Below are positions 263-49,063 of a stretch of 64,000 bases of DNA, in pieces (positions within the stretch are counted from its first letter, which is position 1; each line of letters opens with the position of its first letter). The stretch comes from Candidatus Auribacterota bacterium (GTDB lineage Bacteria > Auribacterota > JAFGBW01 > JAFGJP01): NCBI GenBank assembly GCA_023144635.1, contig JAGLFH010000036.1, forward strand, positions 2,645 to 66,644, written 5' to 3'. The notes under the pieces are model-generated. The model was not told the DNA's origin. It searched no databases and saw nothing but the letters and a program-made list of their open reading frames with translations. Both the position numbers and the translations under genes were made by a program.

Positions 263-1618
263 TTAAGATCCTTTCAACTTACTTATAAGTGTAGGGCGCG
301 AAATGTTCAGGATCTTTGCAGCATGAGACTTATTTTGATTAACCGCATCAAGAACATATTTTATATGACGCCTTTCGATCTCTTCTAAAGGAACAAGATC
401 TTCTTTCTTGTCTTCAAAAAAGTACTTCTGAAAATACATGGGTAGTGACTGCTTAGTTATCATATTTGTTTTTTCTATAGCAGCTGAAGATTTAATAATA
501 TTTTTTAACTCCCGAATATTGCCGGGAAAATTATACCGGTTTAAAAGCTCCATAGCCTTTTGATGAATTCCTTTGATCTTCTTTCTGTTCTTTTTATTGA
601 ACTCCTTAAGGAAAACATTTGCAAGCAGGCTAATATCTTCCCTTTTTTCTCTTAAAGGAGGAATTTCTACAATATGGGCAGATATCCTAAAATAAAGGTC
701 TTTCCTAAAAAGCCCTTTTTCCATCAAATGGAAAAGATTTTTATTAGTCGCGAAAACAAAACTGCAATTTACCTTTTTTACACGTGTATCACCTACAGGA
801 TAATATTCCTTATTCTCAAGCACTCGAAGAAGGCGAGATTGTACAGAAAGATCCAGATCACCTATTTCATCAAGAAAAAGAATCCCATTTTTAGTTACTC
901 CTATTATACCCTGACTCTCTGTCTGTGCACCTGTATATGCTCCTCTTGCATGCCCAAACAGCTCATTTGAAAGAAGTTCGTTCTGGTAAGAAGAAATATT
1001 GATTGCAGAAAATTTCTCATCTTTTCCAAAACGTATATCGTGCAAACTTCTCGCAAAAAGCTCTTTGCCTGTCCCCGACTCACCACAGATCAAAATGGGA
1101 TCATCTGTAAATGCAACTCTTTCAATTTGATGAAAAAGATCAAACATCTTACGGCTTTTGGTTATTATATTTTTAAAGACTTCCTTTTTTCCTATTTCAT
1201 GAGCTTTATCTTTAAGATTCTTTATTTTAAATAAAAGATCTTCTTTTTCAGAAATATGTTTTAGTGTAAGAATCAATTTTGAAGGATCAACAGGTTTTCT
1301 TAAATAATCATAAGCACCTATTTTTATAGCCTTTACAGCCATTTCAACATCATCAAGAGCAGTCAGCATCACACAGTCCATGTTTGGATACTTTCCGGCA
1401 AAAATTTTAAGAAGATCAACACCCAAAAGATCAGGAAGCTTTTGATCTATAACAGCAATATCAAAACCACCATTAGAACTTTCAGCAAATTTAAGAGCTT
1501 GCTTACCATTTTCTGCTGTTGTTACATTATAGATCTTTTCCTGAACAAGAAGCCTTTTAACAAAGCGTATGGTTGACGGATCATCATCAACAACAAGTAC
1601 TTCACTTTTTCTTAACAT
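263..1618 (-). CDS. Sigma-54-dependent response regulator, NtrC family (REC, AAA+ sigma-54 activation domain, Fis-type HTH)
   Basis: N-terminal REC with VVDDD. Walker A GESGTGKE. GAYTGA, a variant of the GAFTGA sigma-54 contact loop. C-terminal HTH AAKILNISRPTLISKLK. Confidence 0.9.
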   Translation of the reverse strand: MLRKSEVLVVDDDPSTIRFVKRLLVQEKIYNVTTAENGKQALKFAESSNGGFDIAVIDQKLPDLLGVDLLKIFAGKYPNMDCVMLTALDDVEMAVKAIKIGAYDYLRKPVDPSKLILTLKHISEKEDLLFKIKNLKDKAHEIGKKEVFKNIITKSRKMFDLFHQIERVAFTDDPILICGESGTGKELFARSLHDIRFGKDEKFSAINISSYQNELLSNELFGHARGAYTGAQTESQGIIGVTKNGILFLDEIGDLDLSVQSRLLRVLENKEYYPVGDTRVKKVNCSFVFATNKNLFHLMEKGLFRKDLYFRISAHIVEIPPLREKREDISLLANVFLKEFNKKNRKKIKGIHQKAMELLNRYNFPGNIRELKNIIKSSAAIEKTNMITKQSLPMYFQKYFFEDKKEDLVPLEEIERRHIKYVLDAVNQNKSHAAKILNISRPTLISKLKGS

Positions 1619-7479: not shown

Positions 7480-8751
7480 ATGCCTGATTTGGGAAATAAA
7501 ACTATTCTTATTGCTGATGATGAAGAAATCATTTGTAAACCATTAAGAATGTTTTTCGAAAAAAAAGGTTTTTTTGCTCTAACTGCTTTTGACGGTGAAG
7601 AAGCTTATAAAATATTACAGTCAGCTAAAGTAGACGTTATGTTGGCTGATCTAAAAATGCCAAAATTAAGCGGATTAGAGCTTATTAAAAAAGCAAAAGA
7701 AAGCATACCTCATCTTCCTATAGTAATACTTAGCGGAGGAGGATCAATAGAAGATGCCACTTTTACAATTAAATCAGGCGCTTTTGATTACATCCAAAAA
7801 CCTATAGAGAATATGGACGAGCTTGAGCGCGTTATTAATCGTGCTATAGAGCGAGGTGAACTCGAGAAACAGCAAGAAATACTTCAAAGGAACCTCCGGG
7901 AAAAAACACAAAAACTAGAAGAAAAGATCATAGAAGTAAATAAAGCAAAAGAACAGGTTGAAAAACAATCGTTTTATCTTCAACAGGCTCTTGAAATGAT
8001 AGAAGATCAAAATATTAAGATGGAGGAAGATCTAAAAAGCGCTCAACGCATACAAGAAGACCTTCTTCCAAAAGAGCTTCCTAACGGAGAACATTTTTCT
8101 TTTGCTTCAAAATATATTCCTTCAGGAAAAGTAGGAGGTGATATGTTTGATGCTTTTTTTGATCCTACATATAAAATAAACCTTTATATAGCTGATGTTG
8201 CCGGCCACGGGGTAGGAGCTGCTATGGTTACTGTTTTTTTAAAAAAAACAATAACTCCTTTTGAACAATATACCGATAGAAATACCACTCCAAAAGAAAT
8301 TTTGTCATTACTTAATCAAGAGCTTATTAAAGCAAGTTTTGGACGCATGCTTTTTGTTACAATGCTCTATGCAACATTCAATCCGTTATCGAAACAGTTT
8401 ACTTATGCATCAGCAGGACACCCACCCTTCATACTAAAAAGCCCGGGTAAAGAACCTGTAATGTTAAGAACTGACGGGATGTCACTGGGGTGGAAAAAAG
8501 ATCCTAACTTTATAGAAAACACTATTACTCTTGAGAAAAAAGACCGATTGATCTTTTTTACAGACGGGCTTGTTGATGCTATGGACCGCAACACCAATAA
8601 TCCTTATGGGATGGATAAAGTTTTAGCAACGGTTAATAATGAAAAGTATCATGACTTGCCACCGGATGATTTAATAAATGATATCCTTGCAGACATAAAA
8701 AAAGAGTGCGATATAAAAGATGATGTTTCCATTCTAGCACTGTCAATCTGA
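7480..8751 (+). CDS. Response-regulator receiver fused to a PP2C/SpoIIE-type serine phosphatase (RsbU-like)
   Basis: REC domain LIADDEEI...DLKMP. Central coiled coil. PP2C motifs DVAGHGVGAAMV and FTDGL. Confidence 0.8.
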   Translation: MPDLGNKTILIADDEEIICKPLRMFFEKKGFFALTAFDGEEAYKILQSAKVDVMLADLKMPKLSGLELIKKAKESIPHLPIVILSGGGSIEDATFTIKSGAFDYIQKPIENMDELERVINRAIERGELEKQQEILQRNLREKTQKLEEKIIEVNKAKEQVEKQSFYLQQALEMIEDQNIKMEEDLKSAQRIQEDLLPKELPNGEHFSFASKYIPSGKVGGDMFDAFFDPTYKINLYIADVAGHGVGAAMVTVFLKKTITPFEQYTDRNTTPKEILSLLNQELIKASFGRMLFVTMLYATFNPLSKQFTYASAGHPPFILKSPGKEPVMLRTDGMSLGWKKDPNFIENTITLEKKDRLIFFTDGLVDAMDRNTNNPYGMDKVLATVNNEKYHDLPPDDLINDILADIKKECDIKDDVSILALSI

Positions 8752-15806: not shown

Positions 15807-16307
15807 ATGCGCCCTAAAAAAAACAAAGGATATACTTTTATTGAACTAATCATGGTAATGGTCATTATTGGGATCATTTCTGTGGTTTCTGTAACCCGTA
15901 TTATTGAAAGCTCAACCTTGTCCTTTGGGATAAACCTTGCAACAATAAAAGATCATATAAGGTTTGCTGCAGATTACGCTCTTTCAAGAAGCGTAACAAC
16001 AGTTGTTTCCTTTGATGTAGCTAACAACCGATACTCGATTTTTAAAGAAGATCTTTCGGGACGCACCCTTTTAATAAATCCTGAGACCAATTCAGATTTT
16101 GTTATTCAACTGGGTGATGCAAATTTTGATGGTGTAATCCTTACGAATATAGATGTTAATAGTACAAATGAAATAAAATTTTATTCCTATGGTGTACCTT
16201 TTGATGCTAATGATATAAAAATAAGCTCACAAGCTTTCCTTGAAATAAATTCACAAAATGCTATCACTATTTATCCTGTAAGCGGTTATTGTTCGGTGCT
16301 GAAATGA
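15807..16307 (+). CDS. Prepilin-type minor pilin or pseudopilin
   Basis: N-terminal KGYTFIELIMVMVIIGII, the class III prepilin cleavage/methylation motif G/FT.IE followed by a hydrophobic helix. Confidence 0.8.
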   Translation: MRPKKNKGYTFIELIMVMVIIGIISVVSVTRIIESSTLSFGINLATIKDHIRFAADYALSRSVTTVVSFDVANNRYSIFKEDLSGRTLLINPETNSDFVIQLGDANFDGVILTNIDVNSTNEIKFYSYGVPFDANDIKISSQAFLEINSQNAITIYPVSGYCSVLK

Positions 16308-16834
16308 GAAAGAATAAAAAAAACATTAGAGGATTCACTCTTCCTGAAATAATTATGACTATTACTATTGGTACAATAATTATACCTCCTATAATCATTA
16401 TGCTGCTTGTCGCACTAAGAGCTCCAGTTGTAATATCAGGAGCTATCAAAGGAAATTCTCTTGCAAGTGACCTTATGGAAGAGATACTTTCAAAAAGATG
16501 GGATGAAGCATCTACAGGAACAGGCCCTATTGCTGATGGTATTAAAACACTTCCTGTTGATCTTGGATTAGAGGCAGGAGAGACCAGAATTAATTTCAAT
16601 GATATTGATGACTTTAATAATTATTCTGAAACACCGCCTCAAAATGCACAGGGAATCATAATAACTGATTTTTCCGACTACACGCGAAAGGTTGAGATCT
16701 TTTATGTCGAGGGAGGAAACTCTGAAGATTATGATACCGAACTTTCAAATGTTTCAAATTTTAAAAAAATCCTTATAACAGTAACAGGGCCAAACAGCAC
16801 AAACAGATTAGAAGCTATTACGTCAAACAGATAG
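16304..16834 (+). CDS. Prepilin-type minor pilin or pseudopilin
   Basis: RGFTLPEIIMTITIG N-terminus. ATGA start/stop overlap with the upstream gene. The ORF track began at an upstream TTG. Confidence 0.75.
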   Translation: MRKNKKNIRGFTLPEIIMTITIGTIIIPPIIIMLLVALRAPVVISGAIKGNSLASDLMEEILSKRWDEASTGTGPIADGIKTLPVDLGLEAGETRINFNDIDDFNNYSETPPQNAQGIIITDFSDYTRKVEIFYVEGGNSEDYDTELSNVSNFKKILITVTGPNSTNRLEAITSNR

Positions 16835-16875
16835 TAATTTAATTAAAAAATATTAAGAAAAATGTTGTTAAATCT

Positions 16876-17397
16876 ATGAAATATAAGAGAAAAAAAACTG
16901 ACTATTACAAAAAAGGCTACACATTAGTAGAAGTAACTATGTCTATTATGTTAATGGGTATTATTGCAAGTATTTTTGTATCAACAATTGTTGAAGGAGC
17001 AAGAACATATGTGTTTATTGAATCCCAAGCAGAAGCTGCAAATACAGCAAAGTTCTCTTTAAAAAGAATTTTAAGAGACTGCAGAAACGCTACTGTAATA
17101 TCTTCTGCCGATTCAACAAGCATAACATTTACAAATGCTTTTTCAGAAGACATGCAATTTGTTCTTTCCGGTAATGTACTTAACATAAGCGATGATAATG
17201 GTACAAACTTCTACCCTCTTGCAGAAAACGTACAATCTCTTTCTTTTTCTTATTATGATAATTTAAATAATTCTCTTGCTACACCTGTTGCAGACCCTAG
17301 TGAAATAATGTCTATCAGTATTGAACTTAAGACACAGAAGAACAATATATCTTTCCCTGTTAAAGGAAAGATATATTTAAGGATAAAGCCAAAATGA
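16876..17397 (+). CDS. Prepilin-type minor pilin or pseudopilin
   Basis: KGYTLVEVTMSIMLMGII N-terminus. Confidence 0.75.
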   Translation: MKYKRKKTDYYKKGYTLVEVTMSIMLMGIIASIFVSTIVEGARTYVFIESQAEAANTAKFSLKRILRDCRNATVISSADSTSITFTNAFSEDMQFVLSGNVLNISDDNGTNFYPLAENVQSLSFSYYDNLNNSLATPVADPSEIMSISIELKTQKNNISFPVKGKIYLRIKPK

Positions 17398-18233
17398 GAA
17401 TTAAAGCCGGAAGAAGTAATGGTATGACATTTGTAACAGCAGTTTTCACACTGCTTCTTTTCTCCGTTCTTGCCGGAGCCTTTGCATCACTTATCAAACG
17501 TCAATCAGTAAGCTCTGTAGAGTTTACTATGGATGAAGAACTCTTCTTTGCTGCAGATTCTGGAATTGAGATGTCAATCAACTGGCTTTATCAGGATGAC
17601 CCTACAACACTTGCTTGGTGGGACAATGCAGACCCAGCGAATAGAAGCCGTCTTTTACCAAATTATCAGGATATACCCCTTAAAGATAGCTTAATAGATA
17701 TAACATCACAATATGCAGCTACTAATCTTATAAGTGATATCGGGGTCGGCGAAACTTCAATTGAAGTAAACTCTACTACTGATTTTCCTGCAAACGGGGT
17801 TATTCTTATAAATACCGAGTGGATTCAGTATTTTGCAAAGACAGATACTGAGTTTTTAGGCTGTATAAGAGGATATAGCGTAAGTGATCCTGACACGCAC
17901 TCATCATCTACATATGTTTATCCTGCATGTGATCTCTCTGCTAATATAACAAGCACTGATACAACAATACCCGTCACAACAACGACAAAATTTCTTCCGC
18001 AAGGAACAATTTTTATAGGGAATGAAGCCATAAAATATAATTCAAAAGACTCTACGAATTTTCTGGAATGCAGTAGAGGAAGCTTTGATACAACACCACT
18101 TCCCCACCCGCAAAGCGAAAAAGTGTTTCCTGCTCCTTTTGAAATATACATCACATCAACTGCAAAAAAAAATTCTCGAGAAATAACAGTAGAAGCACTT
18201 TTGCAATACCAATACGGATCTAAATGGGAATAA
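17394..18233 (+). CDS. PilX-like minor pilin (pilin-like helix without the Glu at +5)
   Basis: SNGMTFVTAVFTLLLFSVLAGA N-terminus. ATGA overlap with the upstream gene. Position within the minor-pilin operon. Confidence 0.5.
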   Translation: MRIKAGRSNGMTFVTAVFTLLLFSVLAGAFASLIKRQSVSSVEFTMDEELFFAADSGIEMSINWLYQDDPTTLAWWDNADPANRSRLLPNYQDIPLKDSLIDITSQYAATNLISDIGVGETSIEVNSTTDFPANGVILINTEWIQYFAKTDTEFLGCIRGYSVSDPDTHSSSTYVYPACDLSANITSTDTTIPVTTTTKFLPQGTIFIGNEAIKYNSKDSTNFLECSRGSFDTTPLPHPQSEKVFPAPFEIYITSTAKKNSREITVEALLQYQYGSKWE

Positions 18234-18235
18234 TT

Positions 18236-20548
18236 ATGAAAAGAAAACAACTGATGTTTTTTCTTTTATTTGCTATTTTATTTATTCCGGCAAGACTTTT
18301 TGCCGCCGGAGCAACTTTTTCAGCAACCCTTCCGAACGATGCATCGGTAACAATGGATAACACAACAGGCACTATTTCCATTACAGTTACCAACACATCT
18401 TCTGTAAACAAAAAACTAAAATTTTTTCAGTTCCGTGTAAACAGTAACTTTTACAATTACAGTTCTAATAATACCCCTCCGATCAATTCAGGATGGATGG
18501 TAAAAGAAATTAATAATTCCGAAAGTACTGGAGTCGCTTTGCTGGAATTTTCGGCTGAAAAATCATGGGCTGAACTATCAATAGGAGATTCGGTAACTTT
18601 TGATATTATACTTACAGGACCAAACGGCGGTACTATTTTACAGGATAATACAGATAAAACAGATACATTTTTAAGTGTAAAAGCATATGAGAAAGGAACT
18701 GCTCCACCTCCCGGAATATATGGTGATGAGGCAACCCTTGACGGCTCAACTCCAACATGGACAAGACATGGACTAAAATGTGAGTTCTTTATATCCCCCA
18801 ATGCCATGCCTGTAGGAGAAACCCTTTACGGCAGTCTTTCCATTGTAAATGTTTCTTCAACAGATCAAAGCGTGATCGTTACACAAAATCTACAAAATAC
18901 AGGAACAGGCTCTGCAACACTTGTTAATGATTTTTCACCTTCTCCTGTTTCTCTTACTTCAAATGAAACAGTTATAATGGGAATAACATTTACGGCTGCA
19001 ACCGAAGGAAATATCATTTTTAAAGTGGACACTAATAATGCAAATGTAAGCTCAAAAACAACTTTTAGCAATGAGATAAATATAGGAAACTTTACTGCAA
19101 CTCTTAAAGTAACACCTGATGATGTAGCTGACGGAAATGAAGTAACAATAACACTTTCAACAACAAACAGCGGTACAAGCTCACTTCACAACATAACACC
19201 TTCTGCTACACCTGTTTTTTCAGGTTCTGCTAATGCAACACTTGTATCAGGGCCGGATCCGGCATCTCTTAGTATTCTTTCACCAGGAGAGACCTATTAC
19301 TTTTTTACCTACACTTACAGGATAACAGGGGATGCTGGAGATGATTATACTTTTTCTTCTGAAGCAACATGCGATGAAGGTCAAACAACTAATACAGCTA
19401 TAAGCAATACCGGGATCATTTCTGTATTTGCCTATTCGGTATATCCTGTAAGCATAAATTCAGGAAATGTTGATCAGACATTTACTTTTAATATTCAAAA
19501 TGGCGGCAAGGCAAAAATCATTTTAGAAAGTGTTGAAATTTTTCATCCAAGTTCTGATTTCATTTTTGGAAGTGCAAGCGGAGGTTATAACGTTAACTGG
19601 ACAGTTACTGATCTTACGGATCGTATACGTTTTGAAGCACCAACTGAATCAGACGCTATGCCCGGAGGGAATCAGATGGATCTTACAATAACATACAGTC
19701 AAACACCCTCTGTTGTATCTACAACTGACTACAGGTTTGATGCACTTCTTAATGGCGCAACGAATATCAACGTTTTTGGAACAGATAGTAAATTTGACTT
19801 TACAGAAAACAAAACTGAAACGATTTATGTTACAAATACTGTTATAGAACTTGAATATGAGCCAATAGATCTGAGCGCAGACGGAAATGCGGAAACAACT
19901 CTTACCCTTACTCTTTTAGATGGTGATATTGCAATGCCTGACCAGCCAATAGATTTTCAGTTTGTATTTACAGGCACATATGAACAAAATCCCTTCTGGA
20001 TAACAAAGGACAGCATAACTGATGAACAGGGACAGGCAACAGCAAAATTCCGAGCTCCTTATAATGCCTCAAGCTGCAGTGTTACTGTAAAAGGAGTGTT
20101 TGGAACAACCGAAAGTCAGATAGTAATACCCTTTATTGGATACGACAGACCGAATATTCTTTATTCCGGAAATCTCATCCCTATACAGGTAGATCCGGGA
20201 GCTACTGCACAATTTAGTGTTGATGTAAGAAACTCAAGTGAGAATTATGATATGAATTTAACAACCAATTCATACTTTCTTGTCTCCGACGTATCGCTCG
20301 GAGGCACTACTGAGTATAAAGCTTATCTCTCTTCGCCCACCAATATCCCGACAAATGAAGTAATCGTAACACTTACTTTTGAAATCAAGAATTTTCCTAC
20401 TTCATTCATGCAGGGCCAATTCAAGCCAAAGCTTTTCTTTACTGATGGTGATCCTGGCAATGATCAGATAAGGGAAGTTTCAGATAAATTAATCGTAGGT
20501 AGCGGCAATACTGGAATAAGAATAATTGATTGGAGAATAAAGCGATAA
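18236..20548 (+). CDS. Large secreted Thr/Ser/Asn-rich beta-rich protein, putative pilus-associated adhesin (occupies the PilY1-like position)
   Basis: Signal peptide MKRKQLMFFLLFAILFIPARLFAAG. Low-complexity T/S/N-rich repeats. Last gene of the pilin operon. Confidence 0.5.
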   Translation: MKRKQLMFFLLFAILFIPARLFAAGATFSATLPNDASVTMDNTTGTISITVTNTSSVNKKLKFFQFRVNSNFYNYSSNNTPPINSGWMVKEINNSESTGVALLEFSAEKSWAELSIGDSVTFDIILTGPNGGTILQDNTDKTDTFLSVKAYEKGTAPPPGIYGDEATLDGSTPTWTRHGLKCEFFISPNAMPVGETLYGSLSIVNVSSTDQSVIVTQNLQNTGTGSATLVNDFSPSPVSLTSNETVIMGITFTAATEGNIIFKVDTNNANVSSKTTFSNEINIGNFTATLKVTPDDVADGNEVTITLSTTNSGTSSLHNITPSATPVFSGSANATLVSGPDPASLSILSPGETYYFFTYTYRITGDAGDDYTFSSEATCDEGQTTNTAISNTGIISVFAYSVYPVSINSGNVDQTFTFNIQNGGKAKIILESVEIFHPSSDFIFGSASGGYNVNWTVTDLTDRIRFEAPTESDAMPGGNQMDLTITYSQTPSVVSTTDYRFDALLNGATNINVFGTDSKFDFTENKTETIYVTNTVIELEYEPIDLSADGNAETTLTLTLLDGDIAMPDQPIDFQFVFTGTYEQNPFWITKDSITDEQGQATAKFRAPYNASSCSVTVKGVFGTTESQIVIPFIGYDRPNILYSGNLIPIQVDPGATAQFSVDVRNSSENYDMNLTTNSYFLVSDVSLGGTTEYKAYLSSPTNIPTNEVIVTLTFEIKNFPTSFMQGQFKPKLFFTDGDPGNDQIREVSDKLIVGSGNTGIRIIDWRIKR

Positions 20549-30544: not shown

Positions 30545-33500
30545 ATGTCACAGACTCAAAAGAAAAGGAAAAAATCAGCATCAAAACCTGAAAAGCCTCC
30601 TTTTAGCACTGAAACCATTAATGCTGTTTTTGATCAATCTCCTGTAGGCTTTGTTCTATATGATAATACAGGTTTGTTCTTAAAGACCAATTCCAGCTGT
30701 TTAAAGATCTTTGGCTGTAAAAAAGATACTTTTTTAAAAAAATATTCTCTTTTTAAAAACCCGATATTCCCTAAAATATCAAAAAAACATCTCAATAATA
30801 ACACTTCTATTTTTGAGATGATCTTTGACCCATCTACTAAAAATATAGCAAGTACTCTAAAAAACATTATCTATCTGAAAGTACAAATAACTATTTTAAA
30901 GAACCCTTCACTAAAATTAGAAAATTATCTCTTAAATATTGAAAATATAACAGACCAAAAAATAGCTGAAAAAATACATAATGAATCGGAAAGGACCCTT
31001 GATACTATTCTTAGGGCATCGCCTGTTGGAATTGGACTTGTAAATGAAAATAGAAAACTTGGGTGGGCAAATAATCTTTTACTGAAAATGACAGGTTATA
31101 CGCAAAATGAAATTTTAGGGAAAAGCGTATCTATCTTTTATGACAAAAGAAAAGAATTTATCCGTGTAGGCAAAGAACTTTATGCTGATATGCGCAAACA
31201 CGGCATGGGCGAAATAGATACCGTTTGGAAGCAAAAAAACGGCACCCTTTTTAACGTTCATATCCACATACAGCCTATTTTCCCTAAAAAGCCTTCTTAC
31301 GGTATTATTACCGCTGTTATGGATATTACAGAACGATTAAAAGCAGTAGAAAAAGTAAAACAAAGTGAAGAATTTCTTTCAAATATTTTTAGAAGTATTA
31401 CTGACCCTCTTTATGTTATTAATAAACAATATAAAATTGTTCGTTTAAATTCTGCTGCTTCAAAAATCTATGACTATCCTACAGATAAAGGTCCATCACA
31501 TTTATCATGTTACTCTTCACTACATAAAAAAAGATACCTTTGTCAAGATTGTCCTGCAGAAGAAACTTTTCGAACAAAAAAGCCTGCTATTCGTTTTCAA
31601 GAAAATATTCTTTCAGGGGGAAACCGGATTTGGACAGTTACGCAAGCTTATCCTATATTTGATGAAAGCGGAAATTTAAAACAGGTTGTTATATATGTAC
31701 GAAATATAACTAAGCGGAAAAATATTGAAGAACGCCAAAACCTGACACTTGAAATACTCCATCACCTGAATCTTGGCGGTAAGGGAAAAGACGTTCTAAA
31801 AGAAATTGTTTCACTTGTAAAAGCATATTCACATTGTGATAGCGTGGGAATACGCCTTAATGAAACACAGGGTTGTTATTACATTACTAACGGCTTTTCC
31901 AGGCCTTTTCTGGAAAAAGCTAATGATATTAAAACATATGATAAGTTTGGTAATATCCTGGTTGATAAAAAGGGAGATCCACTTCTTCGCTGTATCTGCG
32001 GAGACGTTTTAACAGGTAAATTTGCCACTAATAGAAATTATTTTACAAAAGGCGGAAGTTTCTGGACAAACTCATTATCCAATCATGCAAAAGATACCTT
32101 TTCAAAGAAATCAAAAAACTATGCTGTGCTTTGCAGGCGTGAAAATTTTGAATCACTAGCGCTTATACCTTTAAAAGCAGAAGGAAAGATAGTAGGTCTA
32201 CTTCAAATGTTGTCCAAAAAAAATGGTATCTTTAATAAGAATCTTATTGATTTTTATGAACGTCTTGGAGAAAGTATAGGTGTTGCTTTACAAAGAATAC
32301 ATTCAAGCCAATCCCTAATTGAATCTGAACAATTTCTATCAGCAATTACAGATCAAAGTCCTATAAGCATGTGGATATTAGACCAAAACGGAAAAATTGT
32401 AAAAATGAACCATGCATCACAGGAGCTTTTTGGTATAAAAAATGAAAAAGATATAATGGAAAAATATAATATTTTTCAAGATGAGGTTTTTTTAAAGGGA
32501 GGTCAAAAAACCTCAATAGAAAAAGTTTTTAAAAAAGGAGAAAAAGTCGAATTTAGAATCAATTATGATCTTGAAAAAGTATCTCATATTGCTTTTTCTG
32601 AATCAAACGCTCTTGTACTTGATATAACGATGTCTCCAATTAAGGAATCACGCGGAAGCGTAAGCCATGCTGTTATTATGCATAAAGACATAACTGAAAT
32701 ATCACACCTTGAGACACAGTTTAGACAATCCCAAAAAATGGAAGCAATAGGAAGGCTTGCAGGAGGCATTGCACATGACTTCAATAATATCCTTGAAATA
32801 ATAAGCGGTCATGTTGATCTTACCCGTATTTCTGACAACCAGGAGACTACCGAGGAATCACTGAATATAATACAGCAATCTGTAAAGCGAGCTGCTGATC
32901 TTACAAATAAATTACTCGGTTTTGCAAGAGAGGGTAAATACAGATCAGAACCGTCAAATGTTCGCACTCTTATTGAAGACGTATATATCCTTATAAGCCA
33001 GACATTTGATAAGCGAATTAATATAACTCTCAACATATCACCAAATATTCATCTTATAGAAGGAGATAAAGGACAACTTGAACAATCACTCCTTAATCTT
33101 TGTTTAAATTCAAAGGATGCGATGCCTGATGGAGGAAAAATAATCCTTGAAGCCCAAAACTGGATAATAGATGAAGAATTTGTTAAAAATCATATCGGTG
33201 CAAAAAAAGGACTTTATACTGTCATACGCGTAACAGATACAGGCACAGGAATAACAGAAAAAATAAAACCCCATATTTTTGAGCCTTTCTTTACAACAAA
33301 AGAAAAAAGTTACCATTCAGGAATGGGACTTTCCATGGTATATGGAATCATAAAAAATCACGGTGGATATATCGATGTTTGGTCAGACAGCGGTAAAGGT
33401 ACTACGTTTGAAATATTTTTACCGGCTCTCGAGCAAAAGAAAAGTATTAATCACTTTTCACATAAGAAAAAGACTAAAAAAGGTACAGGTACTATTTTAC

Positions 33501-33853
33501 TTGTAGATGATGAAGACCTTATTAGAGATCTTATTAGAAAGATTTTGGAAGCAAATGGATATAATGTACTTACTGCAGAAGATGGATTTGCTGCTGAAAA
33601 AACACTAAAAGCACATCTAAAGACAATAGACCTCATTGTACTTGACCTTATAATGCCTCATATGTCCGGCAAAGAGGCTTTTGAAAAGCTTCAAGCTATT
33701 TCATGCGACATCCCTATAATTATTGTTTCAGGCTTTAGCCTTAATGATGATTCTCAAGAACTCATTAGCAAAGGGGCTGCTGATTATTTGCAAAAGCCAT
33801 TTGATCTTGTTAAACTGCTTCAATCTATAAGAGTATCACTACTACCTGACTAA
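30545..33853 (+). CDS. Multi-PAS/GAF hybrid sensor histidine kinase with C-terminal receiver
   Basis: Several PAS segments. H-box GIAHDFNNIL. HATPase motifs DTGTGI and GMGLSMV. C-terminal REC ILLVDDEDL...DLIMP. A Cys triad CYSS...CQDC sits inside one PAS domain. Confidence 0.9.
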   Translation: MSQTQKKRKKSASKPEKPPFSTETINAVFDQSPVGFVLYDNTGLFLKTNSSCLKIFGCKKDTFLKKYSLFKNPIFPKISKKHLNNNTSIFEMIFDPSTKNIASTLKNIIYLKVQITILKNPSLKLENYLLNIENITDQKIAEKIHNESERTLDTILRASPVGIGLVNENRKLGWANNLLLKMTGYTQNEILGKSVSIFYDKRKEFIRVGKELYADMRKHGMGEIDTVWKQKNGTLFNVHIHIQPIFPKKPSYGIITAVMDITERLKAVEKVKQSEEFLSNIFRSITDPLYVINKQYKIVRLNSAASKIYDYPTDKGPSHLSCYSSLHKKRYLCQDCPAEETFRTKKPAIRFQENILSGGNRIWTVTQAYPIFDESGNLKQVVIYVRNITKRKNIEERQNLTLEILHHLNLGGKGKDVLKEIVSLVKAYSHCDSVGIRLNETQGCYYITNGFSRPFLEKANDIKTYDKFGNILVDKKGDPLLRCICGDVLTGKFATNRNYFTKGGSFWTNSLSNHAKDTFSKKSKNYAVLCRRENFESLALIPLKAEGKIVGLLQMLSKKNGIFNKNLIDFYERLGESIGVALQRIHSSQSLIESEQFLSAITDQSPISMWILDQNGKIVKMNHASQELFGIKNEKDIMEKYNIFQDEVFLKGGQKTSIEKVFKKGEKVEFRINYDLEKVSHIAFSESNALVLDITMSPIKESRGSVSHAVIMHKDITEISHLETQFRQSQKMEAIGRLAGGIAHDFNNILEIISGHVDLTRISDNQETTEESLNIIQQSVKRAADLTNKLLGFAREGKYRSEPSNVRTLIEDVYILISQTFDKRINITLNISPNIHLIEGDKGQLEQSLLNLCLNSKDAMPDGGKIILEAQNWIIDEEFVKNHIGAKKGLYTVIRVTDTGTGITEKIKPHIFEPFFTTKEKSYHSGMGLSMVYGIIKNHGGYIDVWSDSGKGTTFEIFLPALEQKKSINHFSHKKKTKKGTGTILLVDDEDLIRDLIRKILEANGYNVLTAEDGFAAEKTLKAHLKTIDLIVLDLIMPHMSGKEAFEKLQAISCDIPIIIVSGFSLNDDSQELISKGAADYLQKPFDLVKLLQSIRVSLLPD

Positions 33854-43530: not shown

Positions 43531-45930
43531 ATGGACACAAAAAGAAAAATATTAAATATTATCAAAAAAAGAATACTTATACTTGATGGTGCAACAGGAA
43601 CAGAACTTCAAAAGCGGGGATATCCAGGAGGAATTTGTCCTGAAAAATGGACAATAGATCATCCTGATGTTCTTAGTTCTATTTATTCCGATTACTGCAA
43701 AGCAGGTTCTGACATTGTTTTCACATCAACATTTGGAGCTAACAGGCTCAAACTTTCCGAATATAACATAAGTGACGTAGTTGGAACTAATAAAAAACTT
43801 GCCAGTTTAGCAAAAAAAGCTGTCACAAAAAACACTTTTGTTGCAGGAGACATAGGACCGACCGGGCATTTTATAGAACCATTTGGAAATATTAAATTTG
43901 AAGAAGCTGTTAATATTTTTAAGGAACAGGTTAAGGGACTTCTTGAAGGAGGAGTAGATCTTTTTGTAATAGAGACTATGATGGATATTCAGGAGGCACG
44001 CGCAGCTTTAATCGCTGTAAAAGAACTAACTGATTCTTTTACAATGGTAACGATGACTTTTGAAAAAGATGGAAGGACCTTAAACGGAACAAACCCTGCT
44101 GCAGCACTTATAACCCTTCAAAGCTTGGGGGCAGATGCTTTTGGCTGTAATTGTTCCACTGGGCCTCTTGGAATGCTTCCTTTTATTGAATCTATGAAAC
44201 CCCTTGCAACCATACCTTTAATAGCAAAGCCAAATGCCGGACTTCCTAAACTGTTAAAAGGAAAAACCGTTTTTGAAATGTCTCCTAAAGATTTTGCCCA
44301 AAGCACAAAAAATATTGCTTCAGCAGGAGCTAATATATTAGGCGGATGCTGCGGAACGACACCAAAACATATAGCACATTTAGAAAAAATATTAAAAAAT
44401 AAAAAGCCCCAAATGCCACTTAAAAAAAGTATAAGCGCACTCAGTTCTTCTAAAAAATCATTTATTCTAACTGAAAATGATCCATTAAAAATAATAGGAG
44501 AGCGTATAAATCCAACCGGCAAAAAAGCGCTTCAAGAAGAACTTTTAAACGGCAAAACCTCCTTAATACGCAGCTTTGCAAGAGAACAAAAAGAAAAAGG
44601 AGCATCTTTACTGGATGTTAATGTAGGTGTTCCGGACATCGATGAAGTAAAAGTCCTAAAAGACACTATAAATATGCTTTCTATAATAACAGATCTTCCT
44701 CTTGTCCTTGATTCTTCAAATATTAAAGCCTTAGAAAAAGCGCTAAGGATATATCCGGGACGTGCTCTTATAAACTCCATTTCCGGTGAAAAAGAAAAAA
44801 TAGAAAAGCTTCTTCCGATAGCTGCAAAATATGGAGCTATGTTCATATTGCTTCCATTAACAGATAAGGAAATACCTGCAACAGCTATAAAAAGAACAAA
44901 AATAATACAAAGCATTTATGGACATGCGAAAAAACTTGGATTTACCAAACAGGATATTGTTGTAGATTGTCTGGTAATGACTGTTTCATCTGATCCGCGT
45001 TCTGCTATTGAAACTTTAGATACAATAAGTTGGTGCAGAAAAACTTTTAAAACAAAAACAGTAATAGGTCTTTCAAATGTATCCTTTGGTATGCCGCAGA
45101 GAAAGTGGATAAATGCAAGTTTCCTTTCTCTTGCCGCCTCAAGAGGCCTTAACATGGCAATTGCAAATCCATCTCTTGAAACATTTATGAATATTAAAAT
45201 GGCATCAGATGTCCTCCTTAACAAAGATCCTGATGCTTCTAAATATATACAGCATTTTACAGATTCAAAACCACTTGATAAAAAAGAAGCTTTAGTTTCT
45301 ACTCCTGAAAAAAATGTATCCGCAGCCATTTTGGAAGGTAATAGAGAAGAAATAACCGAATTCATTTCAAAAGCACTTTCTACGATAACTCCTGAAGAAT
45401 TGGTAAACACTTATATGATACCTTCTATAACAAAAGTAGGTGATCTTTTTGAGAAAAAGGAGTATTTCCTTCCGCAATTAATAGCAAGTGCAGAAACAAT
45501 GAAAAAGGGATTTAACTACCTTCAGCCTTTATTAAAAAAGAGCCAAAAAACAAACAAGAGTTCTTCAGTTATCCTGCTTGCTACTGTAAGAGGTGATATT
45601 CATGATATCGGTAAAAACATTGTTGCTTTGATGCTTAAAAATCATGGATTTAAAGTAATAGATCTTGGAAAGGACGTTTCAACCGAAACTATACTAAACA
45701 AAATAAGAGATAATAAACCATCTATCGTAGGTCTTTCTGCATTAATGACAACAACAATGGTAAACATGAAAGAAGTTATAACGCAAGCTCGTAAAAAAGG
45801 TTTTAAATGTCATTTCATAGTAGGCGGTGCTGTTGTAACCAATTCATATGCAAAGTCTATTGGGGCGCAATATGCTAAAGATGGCGTTGAAGTAGTTAAG
45901 GCTGCAAAAATACTTATTAAAAATACCTAA
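43531..45930 (+). CDS. metH: Cobalamin-dependent methionine synthase (Hcy-binding, pterin-binding and B12-binding domains) lacking the activation domain
   Basis: Zn ligands CNCSTGP and GGCCGTTP. B12 motif GDIHDIGKN. 799 aa, so no C-terminal AdoMet domain. Confidence 0.9.
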   Translation: MDTKRKILNIIKKRILILDGATGTELQKRGYPGGICPEKWTIDHPDVLSSIYSDYCKAGSDIVFTSTFGANRLKLSEYNISDVVGTNKKLASLAKKAVTKNTFVAGDIGPTGHFIEPFGNIKFEEAVNIFKEQVKGLLEGGVDLFVIETMMDIQEARAALIAVKELTDSFTMVTMTFEKDGRTLNGTNPAAALITLQSLGADAFGCNCSTGPLGMLPFIESMKPLATIPLIAKPNAGLPKLLKGKTVFEMSPKDFAQSTKNIASAGANILGGCCGTTPKHIAHLEKILKNKKPQMPLKKSISALSSSKKSFILTENDPLKIIGERINPTGKKALQEELLNGKTSLIRSFAREQKEKGASLLDVNVGVPDIDEVKVLKDTINMLSIITDLPLVLDSSNIKALEKALRIYPGRALINSISGEKEKIEKLLPIAAKYGAMFILLPLTDKEIPATAIKRTKIIQSIYGHAKKLGFTKQDIVVDCLVMTVSSDPRSAIETLDTISWCRKTFKTKTVIGLSNVSFGMPQRKWINASFLSLAASRGLNMAIANPSLETFMNIKMASDVLLNKDPDASKYIQHFTDSKPLDKKEALVSTPEKNVSAAILEGNREEITEFISKALSTITPEELVNTYMIPSITKVGDLFEKKEYFLPQLIASAETMKKGFNYLQPLLKKSQKTNKSSSVILLATVRGDIHDIGKNIVALMLKNHGFKVIDLGKDVSTETILNKIRDNKPSIVGLSALMTTTMVNMKEVITQARKKGFKCHFIVGGAVVTNSYAKSIGAQYAKDGVEVVKAAKILIKNT

Positions 45931-45973: not shown

Positions 45974-46843
45974 TTATAAACTCAAAAAAGTGAATTCTAA
46001 AGTTTCGTCCGGCACCACAATAGGAACAATTGAAAGATCATCTACTTCTATATCTTTTTCAGCAGCATCTTTTCCATCTTTCTCAAGATCAAAAAACTCA
46101 GGCGGCTCTGCAGATACAACAATACCCTTAGTGCTCAGACTTGCACAGATATGGCCAATTACAATATTTACAAACTCTTTAACCGCATCTATAGAAATAT
46201 CATCTACCTCTTCAATATGAGTTTTAAGCATCTTAGTCGAAATACTATAAAAAATCTCTTTTGAAAAACTTAAAATATAATATCCGTTTATTTCTTCTTT
46301 TAATTTTTGCCTTACTGAAAAATGCAGATTTCTCTGATTAATATGAGTTTTTTGGCATCCGCCTATTTTCCCGGATAAATCGACGATCCTTCGAAACAGG
46401 CTAAGTGTAACTGAAAGCATAATATCCATATGCTTGATATCGCTTATATTTTTCAAAGCATCCATCATGATCTGCATGTCTTTTTCCTGAGTATCTTTAT
46501 AATCATTTAAATTCATCTCAAGCTCTTTAAGATTCAGGAAATTCTTTTCGACAAGAGCTTCTCCAAGATATACACGATCACTTTTTTGCTGATGCAACAG
46601 GTCATCAAGAGTTTCTTTTGTCAGATATCCTTTTTCTACAGCAAGTTCACCAAAAAATTTATTTTCTTTTTTCTGAAGCTCTATTACTTCCGATACCTGC
46701 TCATGATTCATAAGACTTTTATCTATTGCTAAAGTACCCAGTTTGATGTTCACATTTTTTTGATATTCAACAGCCTCCAGCAACTGTTTTCGGGTAATGA
46801 CCCCCTTTTCTATCAAAAATTGTCCGAAGAATTTAATGCCCAT
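45974..46843 (-). CDS. Tandem MshEN-like c-di-GMP-binding motifs (x4) fused to a CheX/CheC-type CheY-P phosphatase domain
   Basis: Four 24-aa motifs fitting RLGxxLLxxGLIxxxxLxxxLxxQ: FFGQFLIEKGVITRKQLLEAVEYQ, KLGTLAIDKSLMNHEQVSEVIELQ, FFGELAVEKGYLTKETLDDLLHQQ and YLGEALVEKNFLNLKELEMNL. C-terminal active site D-x3-E-x2-N-x22-P, DAVKEFVN...P. Confidence 0.65.
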   Translation of the reverse strand: MGIKFFGQFLIEKGVITRKQLLEAVEYQKNVNIKLGTLAIDKSLMNHEQVSEVIELQKKENKFFGELAVEKGYLTKETLDDLLHQQKSDRVYLGEALVEKNFLNLKELEMNLNDYKDTQEKDMQIMMDALKNISDIKHMDIMLSVTLSLFRRIVDLSGKIGGCQKTHINQRNLHFSVRQKLKEEINGYYILSFSKEIFYSISTKMLKTHIEEVDDISIDAVKEFVNIVIGHICASLSTKGIVVSAEPPEFFDLEKDGKDAAEKDIEVDDLSIVPIVVPDETLEFTFLSL

Positions 46844-46873
46844 ATCTAAACTCCTTTGTGCAGGCAGCTGAGA

Positions 46874-47263
46874 TTAGTCTGCTTCTTTTGCCTCTATGAT
46901 CTTATTAAAAATTTCTACAATTCTTTCTTTTTCAATTGGCTTCATTATGAAATTCTCAGCGCCTTTTTTCAAACATTCAAGCACCTTTTCCTTTGTTCCC
47001 AAAGAAGAAAGCATGATTATTCTTGCATCTTTATCAAAAGAGATTATTTCCTCTAAAGTTTTATCTCCCGGCATATCAGGCATGATAATATCAAGAAAGA
47101 CCAAATCTGGTGAAAATTCTTTATATTTTTCAATAGCTTCAGCACCGTTAAGTGCTTCCTGTACATTATCTACTCCTTCATCTTCTAATATTTTTCTAAG
47201 CATCTGTCTGGCAATAATAGAATCATCCACTATTAAAACCTTAAGCTCAGTAGCACCTGGCAT
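46874..47263 (-). CDS. CheY-like single-domain response regulator
   Basis: 129 aa REC-only protein. LIVDDS...DIIMPDMPGD...K. Confidence 0.85.
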   Translation of the reverse strand: MPGATELKVLIVDDSIIARQMLRKILEDEGVDNVQEALNGAEAIEKYKEFSPDLVFLDIIMPDMPGDKTLEEIISFDKDARIIMLSSLGTKEKVLECLKKGAENFIMKPIEKERIVEIFNKIIEAKEAD

Positions 47264-47299
47264 AAAAACCTCCTTGAATTATATTAACAATAAACATCA

Positions 47300-49063
47300 T
47301 TATATTACTTTTGCGTTTTTTAGTAAAAACATTTTTAACCCATTTACAATACTTGTCGCAATATGCCCCTGGAACTCTTCCTTTTTCAAAAGCATTTCAT
47401 GTTCTGGTACTATTATATATGCAGCTTCTATAAGTATTGAAGGCAAAAATGGATTCCTTAGAACTGCGAAATTACCGAAATGAACTCCTCTGTCAACAAA
47501 CCCTGTTGCAGAAACAAGCTCATTATGAACAAATTCAGCTAATATCTCTGATGAAGGAGTATAAAAATATGTCTCGGTCCCAAAAACATCATATGGATTT
47601 ACACTGTTTGAAACAGAGTTGTTATGTATACTTACAAAAATCCTGCTTTTTTTGCTGTTTGCAAAATTAACTCTTTCACGAAGACTTGCTTCATCTTTTT
47701 TGACTTTACGGGTCATAACTACTTTGGCACCATTTTTCTTGAGTATTTTACTTATTTTTGAGGCAATATCCCAATTTATGTCTTTTTCTTTTAATCTTGT
47801 CGGCCCTACTGCACCTGCACCAGGATTATGCCCTGCATCAATACATATGACCATATTTTTAAAAGGGGTCTCCTTTTTAATAACCGGTGGACGCTTTATA
47901 CTAAGTATCATCTTATTTTTTTCAAATAAGATATCCCATCCCCATATAGGCTGAAACGGCAGGATAACATCCATTTTCAACACATCCTGATCTATCTGCT
48001 GAAAAGATATGTTTTTTATATCTTTATAATGCTCATTTTGAACCTTGTCAATATTAGCGTGGGCAGAAAAAAAGGTGATTGAAAGAGTAGAATCACTAAT
48101 TTTCTCTTCAACAAGATACGGAACAGCCCTAGTACATGCTGAAATGATTTTTATATCATCTTTATCCTGCAAAACTTTTACATTACCTATTCGTGCATCC
48201 TGCAGCATACCGGTTTTTTCAACCTTTGTAATATCCTTTTTATTGACATAGACATTCTCTTTATCCGATAGATCAAGTTTTATATATGGACCTATTATGC
48301 CGGATGCTTTTAAACGAATCCCTTTATAAAGAAGAAGCCTGTAGCCACCATCAGGATAATTTCTTGCTTTCACATAATTTTCTTTTACTTCATAGTTATC
48401 ATCAAACAAAAAATTCTTTATCAAAATCGTATTAGGGCACTCTTTAATAGCAATTCTGTTTTGTTTATCAAATAGTTCAAAAATTATCTCTTTTGGCTTT
48501 TGGAACTCTTCTTTGAATGTATAGATTCCTTCATAAACGCCTAAATACCCCTTATACTCTATTTCTTTCATTTCAAAACGCATTTCTTCTTCTTTAAATC
48601 TGAAAAAAGCAGACTTTCCCGGTGTTCCCATAAAACGCATAATGACTTTCACCCCAGGATTAAGCACCATAGAAGTACTTGGTTCCATAAAAACACTTCT
48701 TATTTCTTTTGAATCAGGTAAAGAGCTTTTCAATTTACCCGATATTTTTACTGTTCGCTTATTTTCAAAAACATTCCCATTCAGCTCTGAACGTACCTGA
48801 AAAGTAAATGTTCCCTTTTCAACCGGAACAAACGAAAGAAAAGCACCATTTGAATGAACTTTTACATCAATTCCATTAACTGTGACCGTGCTTCCAGGCT
48901 TAGTGTTTCCAAAAATAAATGAATGACTAATAAAAGGAAAAGACTGATTTTCAACAGGAAAAACTATGTCAGGATATTTACTACTCTCAGCAGCAGTTAA
49001 ATAGCATTCAAATAAAAACAAAAAAATAAGAATAAAAAGAGACAGCTTTTTTGTCATAGCCAA
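47300..49063 (-). CDS. Secreted N-acetylmuramoyl-L-alanine amidase (Amidase_3 catalytic domain at the C-terminus, N-terminal beta domains)
   Basis: Signal peptide. VICIDAGHNPGAGAVGP...SIHNNS...ETYFYTP. Confidence 0.8.
   Translation of the reverse strand: MAMTKKLSLFILIFLFLFECYLTAAESSKYPDIVFPVENQSFPFISHSFIFGNTKPGSTVTVNGIDVKVHSNGAFLSFVPVEKGTFTFQVRSELNGNVFENKRTVKISGKLKSSLPDSKEIRSVFMEPSTSMVLNPGVKVIMRFMGTPGKSAFFRFKEEEMRFEMKEIEYKGYLGVYEGIYTFKEEFQKPKEIIFELFDKQNRIAIKECPNTILIKNFLFDDNYEVKENYVKARNYPDGGYRLLLYKGIRLKASGIIGPYIKLDLSDKENVYVNKKDITKVEKTGMLQDARIGNVKVLQDKDDIKIISACTRAVPYLVEEKISDSTLSITFFSAHANIDKVQNEHYKDIKNISFQQIDQDVLKMDVILPFQPIWGWDILFEKNKMILSIKRPPVIKKETPFKNMVICIDAGHNPGAGAVGPTRLKEKDINWDIASKISKILKKNGAKVVMTRKVKKDEASLRERVNFANSKKSRIFVSIHNNSVSNSVNPYDVFGTETYFYTPSSEILAEFVHNELVSATGFVDRGVHFGNFAVLRNPFLPSILIEAAYIIVPEHEMLLKKEEFQGHIATSIVNGLKMFLLKNAKVI

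Follow-up and report, generated by a model that had tools for sequence, protein, structure and literature searches.

What might a CheX-type phosphatase be doing beside a lone receiver gene, in a region that holds no chemotaxis genes, and why should two putative sensors of cyclic di-GMP (c-di-GMP) precede its phosphatase domain? We considered this question for a pair of genes in a 64-kb (64,000-nucleotide) stretch of contig JAGLFH010000036.1 of a Candidatus Auribacterota bacterium, which we refer to in its whole length as the window. On the minus strand, a gene encoding a 129-residue receiver (REC) protein (46874..47263) is followed, after a gap of 30 bp, by a gene encoding a 289-residue protein (45974..46843, stop codon at 45974-45976) in which two MshEN_N modules precede a CheX-type domain, an arrangement hereafter written (MshEN_N)2-CheX. 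Both open reading frames (ORFs) are preceded by a strong Shine-Dalgarno sequence: AAGGAGG at 47269-47275, 5-6 nt before the ATG of the receiver gene, and AAGGAG at 46851-46856, 7 nt before the ATG of its neighbour. As an observation, the two-gene module is real and far beyond chance, and its domain identities, its fold, its conserved residues and its genetic linkage to the receiver are demonstrated in what follows. Beyond these observations, we consider it probable that the receiver and the (MshEN_N)2-CheX protein form a conserved module in which c-di-GMP gates the dephosphorylation of the CheY-like receiver. Our best reading of the locus, as an interpretation, would be control of receiver dephosphorylation by c-di-GMP outside a chemotaxis (che) cluster. 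An earlier note on this DNA had placed a single-domain CheY directly upstream on the same strand and had seen no cheA, cheW or methyl-accepting chemotaxis protein (MCP) gene in the window. Both statements were borne out, with 'CheY-like receiver' as the label for the upstream protein: Pfam searches of ORFs of at least 100 residues and phmmer searches of all stop-to-stop ORFs found no homologue of CheA, CheW, MCP, CheR or CheD and no flagellar gene in the 64 kb. The window also contains no second MshEN or CheX paralogue.

The earlier note did not recognise the fusion as a described architecture, and in this it was wrong. Wang et al. 2016 (Nat Commun 7:12481, PMC5013675) named CheX among the partners of MshEN in their main text, and Supplementary Table 4 of that paper lists '(MshEN_N)2 - CheX', with Geobacter lovleyi Glov_2742 (ACD96455), for Deltaproteobacteria and Firmicutes. 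In Supplementary Fig. 3c of the same paper, the N-terminus of Glov_2742 reads MAVKFFGQFLVEQ...LKLGEMAV...MKLGDLLVELG...HLYIGEALV. Glov_2742 and the window protein share their domain order and several landmarks (KFFGQFL..., LKLG..., and third and fourth motifs ending ...YIGEALV), and the N-terminal signature KFFGQ[FY]L, two MshEN_N modules and one CheX domain are all present in the window protein. Judged by its sequence, the window protein belongs to the Glov_2742-type (MshEN_N)2-CheX family catalogued in 2016, although the two come from different phyla, the window protein having its closest named relatives in metagenome-assembled genomes (MAGs) of Candidatus Auribacterota. What the window itself adds to a catalogued architecture is modest: one more member, Auribacterota-like, in an orphan (non-che) setting. 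What is new is that the module is linked to a receiver, that the family is broad and that it often lies away from che genes, points that appear neither in the 2016 paper nor in the other literature searched. Public annotations of family members read 'hypothetical protein' or 'CheY-specific phosphatase CheX'.

The CheX-type domain and its CheY-like partner

Is the C-terminal half a phosphatase? Residues 137-289 (45977..46435, minus strand) match Pfam CheX (PF13690) with 42.7 bits against a cut-off of 27 (E 6.2e-11) and Pfam CheC (PF04509) with 26.1 bits against a cut-off of 22. The predicted catalytic helix DAVKEFVN (46166-46189) carries D219, E223 and N226, and P247-P248 (46100-46105) complete the active-site motif known from CheC, CheX and FliY. 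The spacing had been described in the earlier note as an exact D-x3-E-x2-N-x22-P; the D219-x3-E223-x2-N226 part stands, whereas the gap between Asn and Pro is 21 residues to P248 (20 to P247) and not 22. In the profile alignments, two chains of known structure, the CheX 3hm4 and 3iic, whose deposition names it a CheC domain protein, have the same 21-residue gap, and the active site is therefore canonical. A profile of 45 homologues searched against the PDB retrieved 3hm4 (1.2e-14) together with 3hzh and 1xko, and it also found MshE (5htl residues 8-59, 1.8e-6) and PilF. The score against NCBIfam CheX_Thtogales (NF041094) is 42.4 bits, where 280 are needed for the equivalog level, and on this score the domain is a distant CheX-type domain and no orthologue of Thermotogales CheX.

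The fold agrees with the profiles. In an AlphaFold2 model of the 289-residue protein, with a mean predicted local distance difference test (pLDDT) of 84.4, eight short helices at the N-terminus form two four-helix modules, which are followed by a long connecting helix (residues 105-132) and by the alpha/beta domain of CheX; in the CheX region (residues 141-289) the pLDDT is 81-96, except for a block at 161-170 (73). A Foldseek search with the C-terminal domain matched 1squ, 1xko, 3hzh_B and 3iic with E-values of 1e-8 to 1e-10 and target-normalised template modelling (TM) scores of 0.76-0.80, and a wider set of structures (CheX of Thermotoga, Desulfovibrio, Borrelia and Vibrio, and CheC-like proteins of Shewanella) gave 1e-7 to 1e-10 and about 0.74-0.80, at a sequence identity of 13-20% to the CheX structures. 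The domain thus shares the fold (TM 0.76-0.80) of the CheX phosphatases of T. maritima (1XKO/1SQU), B. burgdorferi (3HZH, with CheY3-BeF3) and Desulfovibrio (3HM4), and like them it bears one D-x3-E-x2-N...P motif on a long helix. The solved CheX proteins are stand-alone and about 150-170 residues long, whereas the window protein adds a predicted sensor region of 136 residues at its N-terminus.

In an alignment of 153 relatives, D219 is conserved in 92%, E223 in 94%, N226 in 98% and P248 in 98%. Together, the CheX profile, the fold and the conservation of the D/E/N/P residues at 92% or more support a predicted catalytic function. An alternative is that the CheX domain is a non-catalytic adaptor that binds the phosphorylated receiver, so that the output of the c-di-GMP receptor would be sequestration or recruitment of the receiver. 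Three distant relatives (P0058, P0059 and P0063; 296-301 residues) lend it some substance: they have kept the MshEN modules (NF053729 at 1e-18 to 1e-19 in P0058 and P0063) and have no CheX match in Pfam, and a clean D-x3-E-x2-N motif is not seen by eye in P0059 and P0063. These proteins may be a non-catalytic offshoot. In the window protein itself and in 92-98% of the 153 relatives, by contrast, the D/E/N/P constellation is intact, and the whole domain can be aligned with active CheX enzymes, among them the one from the CheX-CheY3 complex of B. burgdorferi; we regard the adaptor as highly improbable.

The partner is a single receiver domain (Pfam Response_reg, PF00072, 5.9e-29) with all the residues of the phospho-acceptor pocket and switch, namely the acidic pocket and phospho-acceptor (D13, D14, D58), the Thr/Ser position (S86), the aromatic switch (F105) and the Lys (K108). 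Together with P109, these residues align with D12, D13, D57, T87, Y106, K109 and P110 of E. coli CheY, and the codon of the phospho-acceptor D58 lies at 47090-47092 (minus strand). The best NCBIfam matches are CheY_Halo (102.8 bits, cut-off 200) and the CheB receiver, both under their equivalog cut-offs, and the E. coli-type CheY model gives 56.5 bits (cut-off 189). Because these matches fall short, 'CheY-like receiver' is, at the level of sequence scores, the accurate name for the 129-residue protein.

Receiver linkage and genomic setting of the family

Does the pairing extend beyond this window? Full-length homologues at E<=1e-30 form 846 clusters at 50% identity among 1.84 billion representatives, and 235 species-level genomes, matched by one N-terminal peptide pattern, carry the module. 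The named taxa include Auribacterota, Planctomycetota (with Ca. Uabimicrobium), Geobacter, Elusimicrobiota, Binatia and Nitrospirota, as well as Deltaproteobacteria-type MAGs (Polyangiales, Haliangiales, Syntrophobacter, Thermodesulfobacteriota), Sericytochromatia, Clostridia, Spirochaetia and Armatimonadetes, so that the family is found here in more than 10 phyla-level groups, compared with Deltaproteobacteria and Firmicutes in the table of Wang et al. The closest named relatives of the window protein are encoded on Ca. Auribacterota MAG fragments and are 75% and 58% identical to it. Both come from contigs of a single MAG (Zod_Metabat.284), which has two family paralogues: the one that is 75% identical lies in an amidase-REC context, and the one that is 58% identical has no adjoining receiver gene.

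The receiver accompanies the phosphatase in most of these genomes. In all six of the metagenomic contexts examined in which the two are not fused, a receiver gene lies immediately upstream. Among 80 loci from species genomes, tallied by ORFs and phmmer, the receiver gene is upstream in about 48, immediately downstream in 9, fused in 14, weakly matched in 1 and missing from 7, and the contig ends at the site in 1; a dedicated receiver thus adjoins or is fused to the module in about 72 of the 80 genomes. The fusions occur in both orders, REC-(MshEN_N)2-CheX and (MshEN_N)2-CheX-REC, and the fused receiver of one of them (P0020) is 49% identical to the window receiver, the phosphatase parts of the two proteins being 39% identical. 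Furthermore, the partner receivers match the window receiver with E-values of 1e-20 to 1e-39, whereas other receivers in the same loci reach only 1e-7 to 1e-12, which points to a dedicated receiver subfamily. Because the linkage is conserved and fusions exist, the functional reading proposed above is somewhat strengthened, and the fusions in particular argue for regulation, because the tethered substrate of an unregulated phosphatase could hardly signal.

Is this, then, simply a flagellar pair? The receiver and the phosphatase might be an ordinary CheY/CheX pair whose che and flagellar genes lie elsewhere in the genome, with the receiver as the CheY of the flagellar motor and c-di-GMP as a means of tuning the swimming bias. 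Cross-talk between c-di-GMP and chemotaxis, known in other bacteria, would here take place in cis; such a pair fits the proposed mechanism but not a role outside chemotaxis. Some relatives do reside in such surroundings: one lies inside a complete che cluster (MCP-CheR-CheD-REC-CheB-REC-X-CheA-CheW-MCP), others adjoin an MCP or CheW, and che genes occur within 4 kb in about 20 of the 80 loci. The best NCBIfam matches of the window receiver, to CheY and the CheB receiver, point in the same direction, and an Auribacterota MAG, Ca. Auribacter fodinae, has been reported to encode flagella (PMC9324843). Six Auribacterota MAGs from Ace Lake, on the other hand, lack flagella (PMC9324843), about 60 of the 80 loci are free of che genes over a distance of 4 kb, the window has neither che nor flagellar genes, and its receiver stays under the CheY equivalog cut-offs. 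In other members, moreover, the kinase to which the module is linked or fused is of the classical PAS-HisKA kind and not CheA. One relative's locus comes after a PAS hybrid histidine kinase, and a 700-residue protein (P0129) joins the domains in the order (MshEN_N)2-CheX-PAS-HisKA-HATPase_c, although this is a single example and possibly an artefact of assembly or gene calling. Weighing these points, we find an ordinary flagellar pair possible but doubtful.

An operon in an Elusimicrobiota MAG (locus L016, DAOVJB010000005.1, 3575-7901) offers a glimpse of a fuller circuit. According to Pfam it encodes, in succession, REC-(MshEN_N)2-CheX, PAS-HisKA-HATPase, REC and REC-HD-GYP, and the same ORF layout recurs in an unclassified MAG (L019), with a match to the kinase and a regular-expression match to HD-GYP. 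An operon of this type, with a kinase, three receivers, a phosphatase predicted to sense c-di-GMP and a c-di-GMP phosphodiesterase, suggests a feedback loop. In two Nitrospirota loci, a GAF-HD-GYP gene lies downstream of the module at a distance of 0.5-2 kb, and HD-GYP genes lie near the module in 4 of the 80 loci.

The MshEN_N modules and a putative c-di-GMP gate

How might c-di-GMP enter? MshEN_N is a 53-residue domain in which two 24-residue motifs are joined by 5 residues and which binds one c-di-GMP (Wang et al. 2016, PMC5013675), and this layout occurs twice in the 289-residue protein. The NCBIfam model NF053729 ('c-di-GMP_motif, MshE-related'; cyclic di-GMP-binding domain), whose curated cut-off is 38 bits, matches two stretches of the protein with 78.2 bits (E 3e-22) and is the sole library match in this region, where no Pfam family rises above its cut-off. 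Module A (residues 5-57; 46673..46831, minus strand) consists of motif 1 FFGQFLIEKGVITRKQLLEAVEYQ, the linker KNVNI and motif 2 KLGTLAIDKSLMNHEQVSEVIELQ, and module B (residues 63-115; 46499..46657, minus strand) consists of motif 3 FFGELAVEKGYLTKETLDDLLHQQ, the linker KSDRV and motif 4 YLGEALVEKNFLNLKELEMNLNDY. The motifs occupy residues 5-28, 34-57, 63-86 and 92-115, each followed by 5 residues, which gives a period of 29. Scanned alone, module A (residues 1-60) scores 50.3 bits over profile positions 2-53 of 53; module B also exceeds the cut-off, though barely. FumaraseC_C, DUF4388 and Methyltransf_2, which appeared as candidates in the N-terminal half, were rejected as helical look-alikes of the MshEN repeats under their Pfam gathering scores.

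The earlier note had read four consecutive 24-residue segments, each fitting the RLG... consensus; the four segments and their grouping into two modules are confirmed, whereas the leading Arg is found in none of them and motif 4 is degenerate. Module A aligns to residues 9-54 of V. cholerae MshE, with G7 and G36 as the equivalents of G11 and G40, which are essential for binding. All four motifs keep the Gly at position 3 (G7, G36, G65, G94), and the hydrophobic positions equivalent to L10, L25, L54 and L58 of MshE are kept (F6, L35, F64, L93; L21/V25, V50/I54, L79/L83, L108/L112). Of the 153 relatives, 88-98% share the Gly at position 3 of motifs 2-4 (the figure for motif 1 is biased by the way the sequences were collected), and 86-98% share the Gln at position 24 of motifs 1-3. 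In MshE, G11L and G40I abolish c-di-GMP binding and hydrophobic substitutions cost more than tenfold, and the residues that matter most are therefore those retained in the window protein. In the model, both N-terminal modules are four-helix bundles; an N-terminal module fits c-di-GMP-bound MshE (5htl) and PilF (8pfa/8pdk) with a root-mean-square deviation of 0.7-1.0 A over 56-57 residues, at 24-32% identity. In combination with the receiver and the CheX-type domain, the assignment proposed in the earlier note, a CheY-like receiver plus (MshEN_N)2-CheX, is supported by profiles, structure model and residue conservation alike.

Several observations weigh against gating by c-di-GMP. First, as to the motifs, the consensus Arg at position 1 is missing from all four (F5, K34, F63, Y92), and the relaxed pattern of Wang et al., [RKPN]hGxxhhxx[GAS]hhxxxxhxxxhxx[QNKRYWST], is matched by motif 2 only, motifs 1, 3 and 4 failing at position 1 (F, F, Y) and motif 4 also at position 10 (N). 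Module B, scanned alone (residues 61-122), is borderline at 38.5 bits against the cut-off of 38, over profile positions 2-47, and position 21 of motif 2 varies in the family (N, H, L or I). Second, confidence in the model is lowest in the connecting region (residues 121-140, pLDDT about 63), so that the coupling of the modules to the CheX domain is conjecture. Third, the window has no GGDEF, EAL or HD-GYP gene and no kinase gene adjoining the pair, and a crude regular expression found no GGDEF neighbour in the 80 loci. Finally, some MshEN homologues, among them XpsE and the PilB_3 of D. geothermalis, do not bind c-di-GMP (Wang et al. 2016, PMC5013675), Glov_2742, like any other (MshEN_N)2-CheX member, is absent from the isothermal titration calorimetry (ITC) table of that paper (PMC5013675), and the full-text literature searched, subscription-only papers not being covered, contains no experimental work on MshEN-CheX beyond the catalogue entry of 2016.

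Might the repeats, then, be degenerate? In that case they would not bind c-di-GMP and would serve as a helical dimerisation, scaffold or localisation domain for a constitutively active CheX. The missing Arg, the threshold score of module B, the documented non-binders and the lack of a c-di-GMP turnover gene in the window would all suit this alternative, as would motif 4, the most degenerate of the four, in which N101 takes the place of Gly-10 and Y115 that of the final Gln. Against it, R9A changes the affinity of MshE less than fivefold, so that the missing Arg weakens the predicted binding without excluding it, and the Gly and hydrophobic positions that matter are kept and conserved. The modelled modules fit c-di-GMP-bound structures within about 1 A, Wang et al. 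counted Glov_2742 as (MshEN_N)2 (PMC5013675), and HD-GYP genes are neighbours in 4 of the 80 loci. A loss of binding in all the repeats therefore seems to us unlikely.

For the reading that we prefer, gating of receiver dephosphorylation by c-di-GMP, the following sequence of events may be envisaged. The CheY-like receiver would be phosphorylated by a kinase encoded elsewhere, and the CheX-family domain, as an aspartyl-phosphate phosphatase, would remove the phosphate by means of E223 and N226 on the catalytic helix, in the manner of CheX acting on CheY3 in the 3HZH complex. With the Gly and hydrophobic residues of its motifs, each MshEN_N four-helix module would bind a single c-di-GMP, and occupancy would change the phosphatase activity, either allosterically through the connecting helix or by dimerisation; in the model, residues 116-136 (46436..46498, minus strand) extend the last MshEN helix into the CheX domain. 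The cellular level of c-di-GMP would in this way set the lifetime of the phosphorylated receiver. We infer all four elements of this scheme, that is, c-di-GMP binding, phosphatase action on the window receiver, allosteric coupling and the output of the receiver, and this output could be a flagellar motor, pili or a phosphate sink. Within the window, a multi-PAS hybrid histidine kinase with a receiver (1102 residues; 30545-33853, plus strand; Pfam), 12 kb from the pair, is the sole candidate phosphodonor for the orphan receiver.

A broader and more tentative view, for which we see somewhat less than even chances, is that the pair is a portable, self-contained phosphate timer or sink, gated by c-di-GMP and serving histidine-kinase as well as CheA pathways in many phyla, some of them possibly free of flagella; Auribacterota, Planctomycetota (Ca. 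Uabimicrobium), Elusimicrobiota, Binatia and Nitrospirota may be among such carriers. If this were true, a CheX-family phosphatase would work routinely outside chemotaxis, c-di-GMP would directly set the lifetime of a two-component signal, and in some lineages the REC-HD-GYP phosphodiesterase of the same operon would close a feedback loop. The family is large, spans many poorly studied phyla and is tightly coupled to a receiver, and a function established for one member would extend to hundreds of proteins now annotated as 'hypothetical' or 'CheX'.

How does the predicted protein compare with known systems? Cross-talk between c-di-GMP and CheY-type signalling is known mostly through effectors acting in trans, such as YcgR, MapZ-CheR1 and the Cle proteins, and a fusion of sensor and phosphatase in cis would be the most direct link. 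With the MshEN receptors (V. cholerae MshE, 5HTL; T. thermophilus PilF GSPII-B, 8PDK; NfrB; EpsG) the window protein shares the 53-residue module and its Gly and hydrophobic positions. Unlike them, it has two modules in tandem, has F, K, F and Y in place of the Arg at position 1, and lacks both the MshEN_C/T2SSE_N1 subdomain and an ATPase or glycosyltransferase output. The CheA of Aeromonas veronii (EKB11881) has a stand-alone MshEN_N domain inserted, for which Wang et al. 2016 (PMC5013675) give, in their ITC table, a dissociation constant (KD) of 2.6 uM for c-di-GMP. Like the window protein, this CheA is a chemotaxis-type two-component enzyme with MshEN_N, but in the CheY phosphorylation cycle its sensor belongs to the kinase, whereas that of the window protein would belong to the phosphatase. 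In V. cholerae, Park et al. 2026 (PMC12799141) describe the c-di-GMP effector PlzC as modulating a CheX-type CheY-P phosphatase, by which behaviour is tuned, and separate its CheX-dependent role in motility from a role in biofilms that depends on c-di-GMP binding. As described there, PlzC is a PilZ protein acting in trans, whereas in the window protein the predicted sensor, an MshEN-type one, is fused to the phosphatase in cis.

Neighbouring genes and other features of the window

The gene upstream of the pair, on the same strand, encodes an N-acetylmuramoyl-L-alanine amidase of the Amidase_3 type (587 residues; 47300..49063, minus strand; Pfam 9.8e-43) and ends 36 bp before the receiver gene, with which it is possibly co-transcribed. 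The order amidase-REC is found only in close Auribacterota-like relatives (L001, L002 and L011); we therefore rejected the amidase as a conserved partner of the pair and regard the arrangement, which is context only, as lineage-specific synteny outside the conserved module. On the other side, a gene for a MetH-type methionine synthase (799 residues; 43531-45930, plus strand; S-methyl_trans, Pterin_bind and B12-binding domains in Pfam) converges on the phosphatase gene, its end lying 43 bp beyond the stop codon of the latter. A C-terminal reactivation domain is not among the Pfam matches listed for this protein. Rfam detects only two tRNAs in the window and no c-di-GMP riboswitch or other element near the operon; a promoter scan returned 18 promoter-like sites where 16.5 were expected, and a terminator scan found no terminator.

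Elsewhere, two further receiver-containing proteins are encoded, a sigma-54 activator with a receiver (263-1618, minus strand; Pfam) and a REC-SpoIIE protein of the PP2C phosphatase type (7480-8751, plus strand; Pfam). Positions 1-170, which are cut by the window edge, are GC-rich (about 58% by eye, against about 34% in the rest of the window) and have no Rfam match even at E<=1; a structured RNA might end here, or the segment might be foreign or mark an assembly join. Five ORFs on the plus strand (15807-20548), the first with a prepilin-type N-terminal methylation motif and the following ones (181, 173, 279 and 774 residues) without a Pfam match, resemble an operon for pseudopilins or minor pilins, with TPR and TonB-C proteins after it. 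Finally, a 494-residue ThyX (Thy1, PF02511; 25233-26717, plus strand) is matched in two stretches; the usual ThyX proteins are about half as long, and if that comparison holds, this protein would be a tandem-duplicated flavin-dependent thymidylate synthase.

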